From positions 1 through 40,682 of IMG/VR virus record IMGVR_UViG_3300048861_000274: a DNA stretch of 40,682 nucleotides; one strand, written 5' to 3'. Positions 2,806 to 35,466 of the stretch are shown one piece after another. This stretch comes from a virus (lineage: Duplodnaviria; Caudoviricetes). The translations under genes and the position numbers were made by a program. Each line of letters opens with the position of its first letter. The first letter of the stretch is position 1. The notes below the pieces were generated by a model. The model saw nothing but the letters and a program-made list of their open reading frames with translations, had not been told where the DNA came from and made no database searches.

Positions 2806-2998
2806 TGTCGCCGCCATCGCTGCGGGGCTGAGCGATACCGATCGCGATCGTCTTCTAGACGCCGAGCCGGCCGATAGCTTGGAATACTGGCTTCATGAAC
2901 CAGTGTCGGATCCTCGCATCGCCGGGGATGATCTGGTCGTTAGCCCATTCGGCCTCGCCGTCCGCGCCCACCTTCTGGAGGACACGGGCCATGGGTGA
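2798..2998 (+). CDS. Small hypothetical protein
   Basis: ATG after GGAGG; overlaps both neighbours. Confidence 0.65.
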   Translation: MCDVAAIAAGLSDTDRDRLLDAEPADSLEYWLHEPVSDPRIAGDDLVVSPFGLAVRAHLLEDTGHG

Positions 2999-3104
2999 TG
3001 ATCCGACAGACCCGCTGATGTTCGCAGAGTTCGTCATGGGCATCCTGACGATCTGCGGGCTTCTCTACTTCGCCGCCCGCTGGATGGAGACACAGCATGG
3101 ATGA
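2991..3104 (+). CDS. Small single-pass membrane protein
   Basis: GGAGG RBS; hydrophobic LMFAEFVMGILTICGLLYFAA. Confidence 0.65.
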   Translation: MGDDPTDPLMFAEFVMGILTICGLLYFAARWMETQHG

Positions 3105-3600
3105 TGCAGAGCGCAGGGCGCGGGAGATGCTGGCGGCTGAGTTCGACGATCCTACCGGATACGCAGGAACGGCCATCGACATCCGACGCGGTAGTTTCGT
3201 CGGCATACCGGCAGAACGGGCGGTCGGTGTCATAGCAAAACTCATTGAAGCCAGAGACTTCTACGCCGGCCGGTACGCCGAGAGGTGCGCACCGCAGTCA
3301 GAGGAACCCTCCGCCGACTACCGGCGCGGGCTGGATGAACTGAGGAAGCTGAGCGATCGGGCAACGGCTGGCGAGTGGATGGTGCAGGACGGCTGCTCAT
3401 GGCGCCGGATCGGTACGCATATGCACGACGGCGATGTTCTGTGCCCGATCGTCCAGCGCGATGGCCATCCTGACCTGATTGCAGCGGATGGCAAGCGCGA
3501 CGCCAACATGCGGTTCATCGTGGCCGCCATCAACTTCGTCAGGCAGGCCCTCGCCCAGCCCGAACCCACCAGCGGGGAGAGTGATCATGCACAGCGCTGA
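3097..3600 (+). CDS. Ead/Ea22-like phage protein
   Basis: ELRKLSDRATAGEW ... DANMRFIVAA motif pair. Confidence 0.7.
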   Translation: MDDAERRAREMLAAEFDDPTGYAGTAIDIRRGSFVGIPAERAVGVIAKLIEARDFYAGRYAERCAPQSEEPSADYRRGLDELRKLSDRATAGEWMVQDGCSWRRIGTHMHDGDVLCPIVQRDGHPDLIAADGKRDANMRFIVAAINFVRQALAQPEPTSGESDHAQR

Positions 3601-3808
3601 GGATGAGCGAGAGGCGGTGGTGCGGCTCGTGCGCCAAGCTGGCCTAGAGGCTGTCAGGATGCGCCTTGTGGCTGGAATGCCAGGCGACACCCGAACTGAT
3701 CGCGCCAAGGCCGAAGCGTTCGCCGATGGATGCTCGCATGCCTGCAAGTCGATCCTTGAGGCCATCGAGCAGGGCGCCCACCTCCAGCGGAAGGAGGGGC
3801 TGGGATGA
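3587..3808 (+). CDS. Hypothetical protein
   Basis: GGAG RBS; ERxAVV...AIEQGAHL pattern; ATGA overlap with tnpB. Confidence 0.7.
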   Translation: MHSAEDEREAVVRLVRQAGLEAVRMRLVAGMPGDTRTDRAKAEAFADGCSHACKSILEAIEQGAHLQRKEGLG

Positions 3809-4866
3809 GCCGGACGCGTCCTCTTCTGACCGTGCGCCTCAGGCTCCGGGACAAGCACTGCCGCAGCCTAAATGCTCAGGCGCGTTCAGTGAATTTCGTC
3901 TGGAATTATGTGAACGAGGTTCAGAAAAAAGCCGTTCAATCGCTTCGCCCTTGGATGTCGAAATATGACCTGATGCAGCTCACTGCCGGAGCGGCAAAGG
4001 ATCTAGGCCTGCACGCTCACACCATCCAGCGAGTCTGTCGGCTGTATGACGAATCGCGACGCTCTAAGGGAAGGGCCTGGCTGCGTTGGCGAGGGCGAAA
4101 GTCGCTCGGCTGGGTTCCGTTCAATACAGGTCATGTCCGTTTTGATGGCGAGAGGTTCATTTTCAATGGCGTTGCCTACGAGGCAATGCACCTGCGGGAT
4201 GCTCTCGCTTCGGGCATGAGATTTGGCGCCGGCTCATTCAGCGCTGATGCGAAGGGCCACTGGTATATCAACCTGCCTTGCGAGATGCCCTGTTCGGGTG
4301 TTCGCAACTCTGGCGCTGTCGGTATAGATTTAGGCCTTAAAACCCTCGCCGCGCTATCGGATGGTGAGGCGATCGCTATGCCTAGCTTCTACCGCAAAAG
4401 CGAAGCGGCACTTGCGCAGGCTCAGCGAGCCCGGAAGTCGAAGCGCGCGAAGGCCATCCATGGGAAGATCGTAAACCGCAGAAAGGATTTCCTGCACAAG
4501 GCCAGCCGGGCGCTGTGCGAGAAATACGGGCTGATCATCGTTGGTGATGTCAGCCCGTCCAAATTGGCCAAGACCCGCATGGCAAAGTCCATTCTGGACG
4601 CAAGCTGGTCGGGATTCCGTCACATGCTCTCGTACAAGGCCATTAGGCATGGCGGGAGAATGGTCGAAGTCCCTGAGGCCTACACGACGCAGACCTGCTC
4701 GACATGCGGCGCTCTGCCGCCGTCGAGGCCGAGAGGTATCGCAGGTCTGGCAATAAGAGAATGGACGTGCAGCGACTGCGAAACGGTCCACGACCGCGAC
4801 ACCAACGCTGCCCGGAACATTCTCCGCTTCGGTCTGGAAGCGCTTGTAGAAGGAGCCCTTCAATGA
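3805..4866 (+). CDS. tnpB: TnpB-family (IS200/IS605 OrfB) RNA-guided nuclease homologue, no TnpA nearby
   Basis: N-terminal VRLRL/FVWN, RuvC-I GIDLGLK, bridge NRRKDFLHK, IIVGD, EAYTTQTCSTC...WTCSDC zinc finger, RuvC-III HDRDTNAARNI. Confidence 0.95.
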   Translation: MSRTRPLLTVRLRLRDKHCRSLNAQARSVNFVWNYVNEVQKKAVQSLRPWMSKYDLMQLTAGAAKDLGLHAHTIQRVCRLYDESRRSKGRAWLRWRGRKSLGWVPFNTGHVRFDGERFIFNGVAYEAMHLRDALASGMRFGAGSFSADAKGHWYINLPCEMPCSGVRNSGAVGIDLGLKTLAALSDGEAIAMPSFYRKSEAALAQAQRARKSKRAKAIHGKIVNRRKDFLHKASRALCEKYGLIIVGDVSPSKLAKTRMAKSILDASWSGFRHMLSYKAIRHGGRMVEVPEAYTTQTCSTCGALPPSRPRGIAGLAIREWTCSDCETVHDRDTNAARNILRFGLEALVEGALQ

Positions 4867-5180
4867 AGGTAGCAGACACCCAGACCATCCGCGAGCGGGC
4901 CGTGGAACATGTCTCATATAAACTGGCGGGCAACGAGACCCACCAGCAATTGTTCTACAAGGGGCTGAATAAGGAAGGCTGGGATGACCTCGCCAAATGC
5001 GCCTTTGAAGCCGTCATAGATATTCTCATGGAGCCGGATGAGGGGATGCAGCATGAGGGGGCCCTTCGCATCTGCATGAGCCGAGAGATGGGTGATGACT
5101 ATTATTTTGCGGCGAAAGAATCCCTCCAAGCCATGCTGCGGCGGGCTGCTGGGAGGGGGGAGAATGGGTCTGACGCCTGA
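4863..5180 (+). CDS. Phage hypothetical protein
   Basis: AAGGAG RBS inside tnpB; ATGA overlap. Confidence 0.75.
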   Translation: MKVADTQTIRERAVEHVSYKLAGNETHQQLFYKGLNKEGWDDLAKCAFEAVIDILMEPDEGMQHEGALRICMSREMGDDYYFAAKESLQAMLRRAAGRGENGSDA

Positions 5181-5534: not shown

Positions 5535-5926
5535 CCCTCCACTGGAACCCGAACCGGATCAGCACCCGCGCCCGCGTCCTGAAGGCGGTGCGCGACTATT
5601 TCCGCGAGTGTGGCATGTCGCCGTCGTTCTCGCAGATCGGGTTACGGGCGGGGATACCGAAGCAGCGGGTCGGGAGGTATCTCGACGAGCTGCAACGCGA
5701 TGAGTACCTGAGCTATGTGAAGGGCGAGGCGTGCTCGATCGTGCTGGTCGATCCCGGTGCGAACCTGTCGGACGCTGATCTGCGGGCTGCGTGTATCGGG
5801 CGGGGCCTGCCAGACCCCTTCCTGCTGATGAGGCACTGGCCCGCGATCATGGCCGCCATCCCGGAAGCATTCCCGGTCGACCCAATCATACCGGACGACA
5901 TCGCGGACCTGCTCAAGAAGTTGTGA
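5531..5926 (+). CDS. LexA-type winged-helix DNA-binding protein without peptidase domain
   Basis: VLKAVRDYFRECGMSPSFSQIG...VGRYLDELQRDEYL matches the LexA DBD pattern; no S24 domain. Confidence 0.75.
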   Translation: MTLHWNPNRISTRARVLKAVRDYFRECGMSPSFSQIGLRAGIPKQRVGRYLDELQRDEYLSYVKGEACSIVLVDPGANLSDADLRAACIGRGLPDPFLLMRHWPAIMAAIPEAFPVDPIIPDDIADLLKKL

Positions 5927-8396: not shown

Positions 8397-8473
8397 CGTG
8401 CCGTAGAGCAGTTCGGTAGCTCGCCAGCCTCATAAGCTGGAGGTCGCCAGTTCAAATCTGGCCGGCGCAACCA
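8397..8473 (+). tRNA. tRNA-Met(CAT), initiator-type
   Basis: 77-nt cloverleaf: D arm GAGC/GCTC, anticodon arm CCAGC-CTCATAA-GCTGG, T loop TTCAAAT, encoded CCA, C1xA72 mismatch. Confidence 0.93.
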
Positions 8474-30895: not shown

Positions 30896-30933
30896 ATCGG
30901 GCAGGCAGGCAAATCTATCGCCTGCCGCCTGAT
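30896..30933. terminator. Stem-loop between convergent genes
   Basis: ATCGGGC-A-GGCAGGC ... GCCTGCC-GCCTGAT inverted repeat. Confidence 0.6.
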
Positions 30934-31703
30934 TAGCGAGATAGTGCCTGTTTTGCAGCCTCTACGACGGCCTCAAGATGGCGGACACGTTCTTCCAGAT
31001 CAGATATCCGACGCACGTGGCTGAAGTGAATAAAGTCGTCTGTGGGATATTTGAACGCACCCATGCGCTCGGGGTGCTCATTGGCGACATACCAACGGTT
31101 AAGGCCATCAAAGCCAACGAAGGTATAATCGGCAGCTAGCACCATGGGCTCCCATGCTTCATGGGTATGAACATGAACCTTCATTGGTTCTGTCGCCTCA
31201 ATGCACAGTATCCAGGGCCTGAACCGCTTAAAGTCCATTCCTCGAATCGCCTGTTCCTCGAAGCCCTCAACGTCAATTTTGAGGAAATGGATATTGGCCG
31301 GCGCATGCTGCTCGCAAATTTGCGTGAGGGTCAGGGCGTCAACCTCCACGCCCCGCTTCTCGACATTCCAGTCGCCGACATGGCGATCCGCGAACTCCTC
31401 AACGGCAGTTCCAAGGCCGCCCTCGGGGTGATCGTAGAGAGTAAGCTTTCCGGGCTTGTCCGACGCTGCGGCGTGGACGTTGATGTCACGCGGCCGTTCC
31501 TCCGAAAGGCGCTTGTGCCAATAGGGCGACGGCTCGACGTTGATGCCGTGCCATCCATGGTCATAGAACAGCTTTGTCACCGAATGCTCATCAGGCGCAT
31601 TGGCGCCGACGTCGATGTAAAACCCTTCGCTATGATGCACGCCATTCAAAGCGCGAAGCAATAAAATGTCTTCTCGTTGAATAGACCAACTTACTACTGC
31701 CAA
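30933..31703 (-). CDS. FkbM-family methyltransferase
   Basis: FYIDVGAN, GWHGINVEP, FLKIDVEGFE, FDGLNRWY, C-terminal coiled coil. Confidence 0.93.
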   Translation of the reverse strand: MAVVSWSIQREDILLLRALNGVHHSEGFYIDVGANAPDEHSVTKLFYDHGWHGINVEPSPYWHKRLSEERPRDINVHAAASDKPGKLTLYDHPEGGLGTAVEEFADRHVGDWNVEKRGVEVDALTLTQICEQHAPANIHFLKIDVEGFEEQAIRGMDFKRFRPWILCIEATEPMKVHVHTHEAWEPMVLAADYTFVGFDGLNRWYVANEHPERMGAFKYPTDDFIHFSHVRRISDLEERVRHLEAVVEAAKQALSR

Positions 31704-31727
31704 GATGTCCTCCGCCTTCTCTATGCG

Positions 31728-32015
31728 TCAATTTATCGACTTAGCTTGGTGGTTTTGATTGTTTGAATCCATCATCCGCAATATCTGCCGGTGGAGATCC
31801 TGGCCGAACCCGGACACGAATTTTAGTATTGCTGTTTGATCGATTACAAAACGAGGATCGCTGCTGATGATGGCCGCGACTGTCCGGCCAAGCGCACGGA
31901 CGGCGAGGGCGTTCGTTTCAAAAACGTCTGTCTTGCCACTTTCGGCTGTCACCCTTTGGATAGCGTCTTGTATGCAATTATCCAGGGCGGCATCGAAATC
32001 GGATATATCGTTCAT
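31728..32015 (-). CDS. Hypothetical protein
   Basis: ORF between the two methyltransferases; probable start MNDISDF. Confidence 0.55.
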   Translation of the reverse strand: MNDISDFDAALDNCIQDAIQRVTAESGKTDVFETNALAVRALGRTVAAIISSDPRFVIDQTAILKFVSGFGQDLHRQILRMMDSNNQNHQAKSIN

Positions 32016-32088
32016 GCGGTGCCTTATAGCTGCGCGGTCATCGCTGCGGCAAGAAAGGCCGGAGCGACAGCCATTCATGGAACCGATC

Positions 32089-33192
32089 TTATCCAGCCTT
32101 CCTAACGAGAATCCCGAAACACGTTGATGGGAATCCATCCAAGGCAACCTTTAGGGCCGGCGTTCCACCGAGGAATTGCTGGGTTTCTTGCGGCATATCG
32201 TGGATCCAAGGCGGAAGGTCGATAAACCGATCCATAGGCTTATCGCCGAGATCGTAGTTCAGCGGCGCCACATAGTGGCCGTTATCTCGCAGGTGCTGTG
32301 CCAGCGTGCCAAAATGCGCCCGCTGGAAGAGTACCGTAGGCCAGTTATCGATCGTTGCGCCATGGGGCTCGATGTTGAACTCAGTCGTGTGCACTGAGAG
32401 GCCGCCTGGCCTCAGTGTCGCCAAGCTATTCTCGATGAAGGCTATGCCGTTTCTGATTGATCCGAGATGCTCCAGCGCGCATACCGACCAACAGAAATCA
32501 TAGCCAGTCAGATCATCTGGGATCGCATTCATATCAACGTACCTAAGCGACACGAGCCTATCAAACTCATCGCGATTAATCATGTCCGGCATGAATGCTT
32601 GATCAAGGCTCGCGGCATGCTGATTAGTGGCAGCCCATCCGGCCGCCTGGGCTTCAGCCGCAGCTAGGTCAGTGACCGTCACTGACACCCCATTTTTGGC
32701 AAGGTAGCTTGGGATTGGCTCGGTTCCGCAACCAAATCCGAGGCCCCGTGCGCCTGCTCGGATGTGGCCGTTCTCGTGCATCGCCTGAAGGACATAGGCG
32801 AGCTCCCAGAGCTTCCGATGGAATATGACCGGAATGTTGAGCTGGGCACACCAATGTGCCAGCCAATCGCTTTCCATGTCGACCTGGGTAGAGGCCTTTG
32901 ACTGAAGGCCAACGAATCGCGGGGCCGTGTTCCTATGGAGAGGCATGGTTTCGGCCAGTTTTCGCGCTAGGTCGTAGCCGTAAAACTTCAGGTTCATGTT
33001 CGTGAGGTGCGTGTTACGCACCATGATATTGAGAGCACTCAAGTTTGGCTGCTGCTCAGCGTTCAGCCTAGACAGGGACAGGAGGGAGTGCACCTCTGCA
33101 AGAATCTCAGACTTGATTGAGGCGCGAAAAGATTCTCGTTCAGCCTCTATTTCTCGCGCCCGCTTCTGCCTACGATGCTTCGATCCGAACAA
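32089..33192 (-). CDS. Class I SAM-dependent methyltransferase
   Basis: HRKLWE, GLGFGCGTEP, VTVTDL, VDMN, CALEHLGS, LRPGGLSVHTTEF. Confidence 0.88.
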   Translation of the reverse strand: MFGSKHRRQKRAREIEAERESFRASIKSEILAEVHSLLSLSRLNAEQQPNLSALNIMVRNTHLTNMNLKFYGYDLARKLAETMPLHRNTAPRFVGLQSKASTQVDMESDWLAHWCAQLNIPVIFHRKLWELAYVLQAMHENGHIRAGARGLGFGCGTEPIPSYLAKNGVSVTVTDLAAAEAQAAGWAATNQHAASLDQAFMPDMINRDEFDRLVSLRYVDMNAIPDDLTGYDFCWSVCALEHLGSIRNGIAFIENSLATLRPGGLSVHTTEFNIEPHGATIDNWPTVLFQRAHFGTLAQHLRDNGHYVAPLNYDLGDKPMDRFIDLPPWIHDMPQETQQFLGGTPALKVALDGFPSTCFGILVRKAG

Positions 33193-33430: not shown

Positions 33431-33820
33431 ATGAAAATGCCCGCTCGGGCAGCCTTCGCGCTGTCCGTTCTGCTCGCTTGCACGCCGGCTGCGGCGCAGT
33501 CGCTTGATCAGAGCGGCGGTGTGAACTCCTTCAAGGGTGCCGCTATCACCGGTACGTTGTCGGCAGCTGGCGCCTCGGCATCGGTCAAGGTCCGCGGCGA
33601 TTTCAACTTCAGCCTGTGGGGCACCTTCGCCGCGACGTGCGAGCTGGACCGAAGCTTCGATTCCGGCACGACATGGATCCAGCTGACGGCGATCGGATCT
33701 CCGTTCTCTTGGACGGCGCCGGCGACCGAGGTTCTGAACGAGCCGGAATCCGGCATCCTCTACCGGGTCAACTGCACCGCGGTGTCCTCCGGGACTGTGA
33801 ACTATCGGGTGTCGCAGTGA
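33431..33820 (+). CDS. Small beta-rich protein with signal peptide
   Basis: GGAG RBS; MKMPARAAFALSVLLACTPAAA/QS; RSFDSGTTW Asp-box-like motif. Confidence 0.78.
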   Translation: MKMPARAAFALSVLLACTPAAAQSLDQSGGVNSFKGAAITGTLSAAGASASVKVRGDFNFSLWGTFAATCELDRSFDSGTTWIQLTAIGSPFSWTAPATEVLNEPESGILYRVNCTAVSSGTVNYRVSQ

Positions 33821-35466
33821 CGGGTCGCTCGATGCGCGCTATCATGGCGCTGGCGCTCGTTTCCAGTGCGATTTCGCCGGCTTCGGCTGCCATCGATACG
33901 CCGGCTCGCGGTCTAGCGCTTCAGGCGAAAGCCGCGACGGGTATCGCGCCGAAGATGGCGATGCCGTTTTTCCGGGGCATCAGCCTCGCCGGCAACAATC
34001 GCTACGTCGGCGCGACGACGTGGCCGTCGCAGGACGGCATGAAGTATTGGTTGAGCAAGAAGTTCAACCTTTTCCGTATCATGACGACATGGAATAACTT
34101 CCAGTCGCCGGTCGCGGGGTTGCCCGCCGGCCCGTTGAACGCGGCCAACGTCGCGGGCCTGACCGCCACTATCAATTACCTGACCGGGCAAGGTGCCTGG
34201 GTCATCGTCGATATGCACGATGGCCTGCGGTACAAAACCAGCGGCCTCGACGCGGACGCCGGCTCGATCATCGGGCAGTCGACGGTCACCAACGCGCAAT
34301 TCGCGAGCTTCTGGGCTCAGATCGCGAACCTCTACAAGGGCAACCCGCGCGTCATTTTCGAGCTGACGAACGAGCCGAACAACCTCGACACGACGCTCAT
34401 GCTCGGGACGTTTCAGGCGGGCATCAACGGGATCCGGGGCACCGGCGCGCTTAACGCGATCATGGTGGACGGCAACGGCTACTCGACCGCGCTGAACTGG
34501 ACGGCGGGCTCGCCGGCGAACGGCGCCTCGCTGCTGACACTCACCGATCCGGCAAATAACCTGATCCTCTCGCCTCACCAGTATATCGACCGCGCCGGCG
34601 GCACGGTGTCGACGTGCTATCTGAATGAAGCACCGATTGACATGGCCAACGCCACGGCGTGGGCGGCTGCGAACAACGTCAAGCTGCTGCTTGGCGAGTT
34701 CGGAGGCGGCAATAACTCGACCTGCTACAGCGCGCTGAAGGAGCAGATCGACGTCACGGAAAGCCGCCGCGATGCGTGGAGCGGTTGGGTCACGTTCGCG
34801 GCCTATGCCGGCCAATATTCCTATGTGACGCCCGACACGTTCTTCCTCGGCATGGACCCAGACATCTACTCGCCGCTTGGCGTGGACGATCTGCGCATCA
34901 CCAATTCGATGGCGTCCTTCCTGAACGACGCCCCGGGCACCGTGACCAACACCGCTGTCGCCGCCACGAGTATGACGGCCGCCGCTGGCACAGCGACCAA
35001 CACGACCGCGCCGGATGGCGTCACGGCTGCGCGTAAGTTCGTCGAGGACACGACGACCGCGAACCATCAGCTTTTCAGCGGAAACCTGACCCCTACGGCA
35101 GGCAAGAAGCATACCTTCCAGTTTGACGTGCAGCGCGATGCTGGCACCCGGAACGTCCGCGTGGTGATCGCCGATACCCAGACCTACGCCAATTATACCG
35201 ACATGATCATCTCGCTCGATACGGGCACGATCGGGCAGGTCACGGGCAACAGCACGATCTTCACCTATGCGACCGGCAGCGCGCGCAAACTCGACAACAA
35301 CGCCTGGCGCATCACGGTCAGCACCATCATCGAGAGCATTACGGGCGCCGGGACGATCAACGCGACCGTCAATTTGCAGCCGGTAGGTTCGACTAGCTCG
35401 GCTGGATACGCGGGCGATGGAACGAGCGCGCTGCGTCTCTGGAACATGCAGTGGAAGGTCAACTGA
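33817..35466 (+). CDS. Glycoside hydrolase family 5 with signal peptide and C-terminal beta-sandwich domain
   Basis: NLFRI, IVDMH, FELTNEP acid/base, HQY, LGEFG nucleophile; Thr/Ala linker; APDG-containing C-domain; GTGA overlap (alternative ATG 33832). Confidence 0.9.
   Translation: MTGRSMRAIMALALVSSAISPASAAIDTPARGLALQAKAATGIAPKMAMPFFRGISLAGNNRYVGATTWPSQDGMKYWLSKKFNLFRIMTTWNNFQSPVAGLPAGPLNAANVAGLTATINYLTGQGAWVIVDMHDGLRYKTSGLDADAGSIIGQSTVTNAQFASFWAQIANLYKGNPRVIFELTNEPNNLDTTLMLGTFQAGINGIRGTGALNAIMVDGNGYSTALNWTAGSPANGASLLTLTDPANNLILSPHQYIDRAGGTVSTCYLNEAPIDMANATAWAAANNVKLLLGEFGGGNNSTCYSALKEQIDVTESRRDAWSGWVTFAAYAGQYSYVTPDTFFLGMDPDIYSPLGVDDLRITNSMASFLNDAPGTVTNTAVAATSMTAAAGTATNTTAPDGVTAARKFVEDTTTANHQLFSGNLTPTAGKKHTFQFDVQRDAGTRNVRVVIADTQTYANYTDMIISLDTGTIGQVTGNSTIFTYATGSARKLDNNAWRITVSTIIESITGAGTINATVNLQPVGSTSSAGYAGDGTSALRLWNMQWKVN

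Follow-up and report, generated by a model that had tools for sequence, protein, structure and literature searches.

A phage tnpB gene without transposon ends: predicted omega-RNA within coding sequence and a matching target in a co-occurring relative

The tnpB locus and its product

The window analysed here is the whole 40,682-nucleotide stretch of IMG/VR record IMGVR_UViG_3300048861_000274, a 40.7-kb provirus of estimated 73% completeness with terminase, portal and tail-sheath genes. Downstream of a DNA methylase gene and a DUF4326 gene, among small ORFs without family, lies a gene (3805..4866; all features of the locus are on the plus strand) whose 353-aa product matches TnpB families. It is tightly fitted between its neighbours, as the first-pass annotation had described: ATGA overlaps are present at both ends (3805-3808 and 4863-4866), the tnpB ribosome-binding site (RBS; GAAGGAGG, 3790-3797) lies inside the upstream phage ORF (3587..3808; 73 aa, no family), the stop of which overlaps the tnpB ATG, and the RBS of the next gene (GAAGGAG, 4849-4855) lies inside the 3' part of tnpB. 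This next gene (4863..5180, 105 aa) is an interrupted phage gene, restarted in frame by an ATG (4863) that is borne by the element, as is its RBS; residues 1-5 come from the element, and the native start would read MTQTIRE. No tnpA accompanies tnpB, as was also noted at first and as is usual for IS1341-type elements, Y1 TnpA being absent from the record at its estimated 73% completeness. The GC3 of tnpB is 0.66, compared with 0.68-0.72 for most neighbours, 0.59 for the methylase gene and 0.76-0.89 for the structural genes, and RTGA overlaps are common in the same phage region (445, 1164, 2380, 5531, 7459, 8989).

Judging by its residues, the protein has an intact, rearranged RuvC triad and an intact zinc finger. 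D175, G247 (at the position of the RuvC-II glutamate), the alternative E291, D332 and the four zinc cysteines (C298/C301/C322/C325) are invariant in all 15 aligned proteins. A glycine at RuvC-II with a compensating glutamate defines the RIIr-5 TnpBs (PMC10691335), of which one ortholog (written RII-r5) is reported to cleave DNA (PMC10278001); the product shares with this clade both the glycine and the invariant downstream glutamate, a likeness at the level of residues. The predicted structure (pLDDT 79) has the ISDra2 TnpB, 8h1j, as its best Foldseek match (E 1.7e-18). The closest TnpB relatives found are about 70% identical, and searches for TnpB relatives returned no orthologue at the same locus. 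Among cultured phages, only distant full-length TnpBs (<48%) and terminases (<50%) were matched, the former in Ralstonia, Acinetobacter, Salmonella and Bacillus phages (H1-H13; 43-48% identical).

A predicted omega-RNA within two overlapping genes

The locus had initially been read as leaving no obvious space for an omega-RNA. This does not stand: a covarying omega-RNA core extends from the tail of tnpB into the first six codons of the next ORF. The predicted scaffold (4689..4879, with an uncertain 5' limit), drawn from RNAalifold and a covariance model, lies wholly in coding sequence. It contains a conserved 6-bp stem-loop (4825..4842), the loop of which bears the first strand of a pseudoknot (4832-4836); the second strand (4873-4877) pairs with it and is followed by a terminal AC that closes the element at 4879 (4873..4879). 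A short 3' hairpin (4857..4869), with a stem of only 5 bp, occupies the place of the long TnpA-binding right-end hairpin of mobile relatives. It corresponds to the short palindrome correctly noted across the tnpB stop, which we now regard as the shortened 3' stem of the omega-RNA; the TTCAA that it contains is ruled out as the right end by the alignment and by the empty allele described below. Conservation stops at 4879, and hence the guide is taken to start at 4880: a predicted guide of about 16 nt (4880..4895) begins in codon 6 of the next ORF, and identity to a related phage runs on to 4904.

The support for this RNA is covariation, single-sequence folding of the 3' region being not significant (z 0.04 and -1.5). 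TnpB matches were obtained in 181 sequences; 129 distinct ones reach the 3' end and 78 of these have at least 52% identity. In 71 of the 78, a terminal A(C/A/T) is preceded by a pentamer complementary to a loop that caps a stem within the tail of tnpB; of the seven exceptions, three are truncated contigs. The covariation alignment comprises 50 of the 71 sequences, chosen by hand to remove near-copies. All 11 pairs of the core hold in all 50 sequences (all 550 cells pair), with two-sided, compensatory changes at 10 of the 11; the covariation score was equalled by 0 of 500 shuffles, and slid controls pair at 17-43%. The full pairing of the pseudoknot is partly due to the selection of sequences, whereas the six-pair stem at 4825-4842, which was not used for selecting, covaries at all six pairs and is paired in 50/50 sequences. 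One U:A pseudoknot pair is specific to the window phage (1/50 sequences), and one of its sides lies in a codon of the neighbouring gene. Among 14 loci with short ends, RNAalifold gave two-sided changes at 23 of 49 pairs; all 14 can form a hairpin at the site of the 3' stem, with differing sequences, few of which beat shuffles singly.

The scaffold thus appears to be encoded in cis and to end at the right end, as in OMEGA TnpB systems, and a pseudoknot joining stem-loop and 3' end is reported to be required for cleavage in another TnpB system (PMC13521648). The covariance model, which included the window's own sequence, scores the window omega-RNA at 78 bits and finds no second omega-RNA in the record (next match 12 bits, E 0.09). 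An Rfam search of the record returned only a tRNA gene (8397-8470), just ahead of the packaging genes. These results bear on three options proposed at the outset for the guide. Its embedding in coding sequence is supported; supply in trans is unlikely within the record, as there is no second copy, and a dispensable guide is unlikely because of the compensatory pseudoknot pair specific to the window. The predicted RNA would mean that the overlapping coding sequences of two genes can accommodate an entire guide RNA, and that the portion of the omega-RNA deleted naturally here, the TnpA hairpin, is likely to be dispensable in a 353-aa nuclease. At the 3' ends of two other loci (L006 and L109) the terminal element motif is duplicated with a spacing of about 45 bases, so that either copy could define a guide.

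Loss of transposon ends and insertion at start codons

The initial impression that the locus has no clear subterminal hairpin is borne out, as the hairpins of an IS1341-type element, one after the TAM at the left end and the TnpA hairpin at the right, are both missing. The left end has 20/37 mismatches to the left-end hairpin of the clade, against 0-14 in loci classed as intact, and the right end has 13/26 mismatches to the right-end hairpin, against 0-7, with the 5-bp stem in its place. At the left junction (3805..3815), 9 of 11 bases equal the start of the empty allele and the TAM position reads TGAG, not TGAC. This junction may represent a degraded target copy; with 8/12 it fell below the 10-of-12 cut and was rejected as such.

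Classification of 70 proteins by thresholds gave 20 without both hairpins, 19 without the left one only, 25 with both and 6 unclassed. With these threshold classes, end loss is scattered across a quick tree (at least nine forced changes), and a single origin of the end-less forms is not supported. The window belongs to a six-member group (support 99) in which no member is classed as having the left hairpin (one is unclassed) and one keeps the right hairpin; all flanks and guides differ within it. At eight other loci (L001, L021, L103, L104, L110, L113, L116, L026), another conserved, hairpin-like leader about 60-110 bases 5' of tnpB replaces the usual left end.

In five loci (L146, L109, L158, L032, L027), the first 7-10 guide bases recur just upstream of or at the tnpB start, with an intact TGAC in L146 and L109. 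Such 5' guide copies occur in 5/40 loci lacking the left end (0.08 expected) versus 0/25 with left ends, and may be either the scar of a transposase-free insertion or a site of self-repression. A different arrangement is seen at L138, where TGAC together with the 13 leading bases of the locus's own guide lies about 90 bases past the right end.

The nearest described systems are the TnpBs of IS200/IS605 elements (ISDra2, PDB 8h1j/8exa; the IS1341 tnpB-only group). Common to them and to the window are the TnpB fold, a pseudoknotted omega-RNA overlapping the 3' end of tnpB, a guide from the right flank, a TAM at the insertion site and the lack of tnpA. The window differs in the loss of both subterminal hairpins and in having scaffold and guide entirely within two overlapping coding sequences, and its clade in favouring and rebuilding start codons.

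This last property is apparent in the elements that retain both hairpins. TGAY stands ahead of the left hairpin in 23/25 of them (background 14%) and TGAC in 14/25, ten of the 14 reading ATGAC or GTGAC; one table in PMC10787141 gives both TGAC and TGAT as TAMs of TnpBs. The TAM assigned to the window is deduced from these relatives, which are 52-70% identical and none of which comes from its own subclade. At the right end, an ATG in frame with the final AC is present in 40/61 loci, and in 19/25 intact elements; 29 of the 40 frames run on for at least 50 codons, and the frame of the right-end ATG is open in 31/61 loci, the two remaining frames in 17 and 20. The tnpB stop takes the form ATGA in 27/72 clade members, including 6/25 with both ends intact. 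We infer that members of the clade insert at start codons, take over the start for tnpB and provide the interrupted gene with a new RBS and ATG, from which both ATGA overlaps would follow. The tidy, operon-like fit therefore comes, most likely, from the clade's way of inserting, and the operon coupling taken at first as a sign of domestication is not evidence of it. More generally, the lack of omega-RNA space or the coupling to an operon need not mean that a tnpB is domesticated, and our results point to an IS clade that targets and rebuilds start codons, a behaviour for which a narrow literature search found no paper.

An empty allele in a co-occurring phage and the role of the nuclease

The native start MTQTIRE was predicted beforehand and then found both in a library protein and in a phage contig without tnpB. 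The protein, P0125, came from a full-library protein search (40% identical over 98 aa, E 7e-5); it contains MTQTIRERAVE, opens like the window ORF at 3097 and has no tnpB in the 180 codons ahead of MTQTIRERAVE. Two soil sequencing runs, X1 and X2, contain the window phage and also a contig of a tnpB-free relative; X1 may be the source sample, and both may belong to one campaign. The upstream codons of this relative are unlike those of P0125, so that the two represent separate empty alleles. Searches along other lines were less productive: scans of viral contigs with the two flanking genes and P0125 gave no matches, a degenerate motif for the empty start gave two matches in another frame of an unrelated gene, which were dismissed, and P0124 proved a chance repeat match. 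The one other guide tried, that of L005, matched only its own contig among viral contigs, with no empty site.

The contig of the relative in X2 (1001 bases) matches window positions 2861-3121 (11 differences), 4878-4904 (exactly) and 5130-5161, in this order, with 450 bases between the first two matches versus 1756 in the window, and 231 differing bases between the last two. In both runs the stretch ahead of the 4878 match closes with GGGAGG, which resembles an RBS, seven bases and ATG, so that ATG-AC, and with it TGAC, directly abuts 25/25 guide-side bases. This confirms the element boundary at 4879. The remainder of the relative's gene does not align at an 80% cut. An assembly jump between the alleles is unlikely, because the shared 27 bases are shorter than the 31-base word. 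Other contigs from both runs share further patches with the window between 2300 and 6300 (2792-2890, 2926-3121, 5130-5161, 5543-5576 and near 5618, 5972 and 6274), several of them near gene boundaries, as in mosaic exchange among relatives.

The empty site carries the predicted TAM and an exact right flank, as expected for an OMEGA TnpB whose guide derives from its flank; the sequence to the left of the ATG is different, so that it is probably not a precise empty site. A relative with a precise empty site, a TAM and a standard right-end omega-RNA, revealing an ordinary IS1341-type insertion, had been named in advance as the observation that would overturn domestication. Half of this was found: in a relative, TAM and guide are joined at an empty site, and the clade resembles IS1341; with the loss of both transposase hairpins, however, the window cassette is no longer an ordinary mobile IS. 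Any IS insertion, whether still active or dead, would be expected to show such a match, which may reflect a conserved gene-start patch exchanged among mosaic phages instead of selection acting on the guide. Within the window itself, none of 335 TGAC sites is followed by more than four guide seed bases, and the record holds no TAM-flanked target; as with homing endonucleases, the target is present in a related phage and absent from self.

We propose, with a probability of roughly 60%, that the locus encodes an immobilised, IS1341-derived TnpB with a guide RNA embedded in cis, predicted from sequence to cut phages carrying the empty allele, for homing or exclusion. A mobile ancestor would have inserted at ATG-AC, converting the host gene's start into the tnpB start and supplying a new RBS and ATG from its right end; the hairpins are now lost while catalytic residues and RNA pairs are retained, as the sequences show. 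TnpB would process its own mRNA into the omega-RNA, as PMC10278001 suggests, and find the matching target that is present in the co-occurring relative and absent from its own record. Cutting would most likely occur during co-infection or superinfection of a lysogen, in a host inferred to be common to both phages, and favour the tnpB allele: the break would either destroy the rival or be repaired from the tnpB genome through the shared flanking patches, which would amount to marker exclusion or to intronless homing. Repair would transfer about 2 kb, neighbours included; an unrepaired break would eliminate the rival. On the right-hand side of the cut the two phages share little sequence (a few bases, followed by 32 at 5130-5161, beyond which they diverge), so that conversion may be inefficient and exclusion is as plausible as conversion; only exclusion would benefit the phage itself rather than the cassette. 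Of the functions proposed in the first-pass annotation, competitor exclusion is the one to which the exact target in a co-occurring relative lends weight.

The closest analogues of the proposed role are phage homing endonucleases (T4 SegF/SegB; PMC13565253) and a TnpB plasmid gene drive (PMC11870625), in which a non-transposing nuclease gene would likewise cut a co-infecting relative and spare self; the window system differs in being RNA-guided and in sparing self because the element splits the TAM from the target. TnpB is reported to displace empty-site plasmids without TnpA (PMC11870625) and to drive donor-site restoration in chromosomes (10.1101/2023.03.14.532601). The review PMC13565253 treats co-infecting phages as a theoretical TnpB target (section 6.1), and it regards copying after orthologous-site cleavage as theoretical for phages, citing only the plasmid experiment; a preprint on a cyanophage tnpB describes a recent host IS copy (10.64898/2026.02.14.705889). 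A literature search covering mostly listings and the beginnings of abstracts found no paper showing homing or exclusion by an end-less phage TnpB. The window phage and its co-occurring relative with an exact target therefore form a natural pair in which to study transposase-free homing or exclusion by TnpB, which print treats as theoretical.

Alternatively, the locus could be the remnant of a stranded insertion, in which tnpB is kept only because its ends supply the neighbouring genes with stop, RBS and start signals, and nuclease activity has ceased to matter. The recurrence of end loss over the tree is what decay would give, and broken relatives exist, L013 being frameshifted. The low dN/dS values (0.13-0.21 in 10/10 pairs) speak for the preferred reading, but cannot date selection, since dS is near saturation (1.3-2.2) and spans the mobile past. 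We nevertheless consider a remnant unlikely, given that the 353-codon frame is complete and retains every catalytic and zinc residue despite the loss of both hairpins, that a compensatory pseudoknot pair, one side of which lies in the neighbour's codon, occurs in the window alone, and that a co-occurring relative has a perfect target.

Improbable, too, is an exapted regulator or host-targeting effector resembling TldR, whose ribonucleoprotein would bind a host or phage site or control downstream translation. Control of host genes by phage-borne TnpB derivatives is reported (bioRxiv 10.1101/2023.11.30.569447), the omega-RNA includes the RBS and first codons of the next gene, and the five relatives with part of their own guide at the 5' end of tnpB would suit such a role. 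The TldRs of fliC-P prophages, TnpB-derived repressors, are similarly phage-borne and immobile with a retained guide RNA, but they are nuclease-dead, with an inactivated RuvC, a free-standing guide RNA and a host-promoter target, whereas the window TnpB keeps D175, E291 and D332; moreover, its guide is the native flank, unchanged toward any new target, and the record holds no internal target. Least credible is that the cassette is still a normal non-autonomous IS1341 element whose unusual short ends are recognised by a host TnpA acting in trans: only about 25% of tnpB genes have a nearby tnpA (10.1101/2023.03.14.532601) and close relatives without ends occupy other loci and have other guides, but excision is reported to require intact ends (same source) and here only 21 bases, with no hairpin, separate the ATG from conserved residue 8, the right end reads ACAC without the right-end hairpin and its guide tetranucleotide, and searches for TnpB relatives found no second near-identical copy of the cassette.

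Beyond the preferred reading of an immobilised nuclease directed at empty-allele phages, a wider possibility can be put forward tentatively. End-less TnpB cassettes might constitute a standing class of RNA-guided phage-versus-phage weapons, parked at shared gene starts of mosaic phages at no cost to the operon and reaching new sites and guides without a transposase, by break repair that would leave a 5' target copy of 7-10 bases. If so, a 5' copy that kept its TAM could let TnpB repress its own gene.

Two further features were seen elsewhere in the window. A low-GC stretch among the tail genes carries two methyltransferase genes on the opposite strand (30933-33192, minus strand), one of them FkbM-like, and the 616-aa product encoded at 33616-35466 contains a glycosyl hydrolase family 5 domain.
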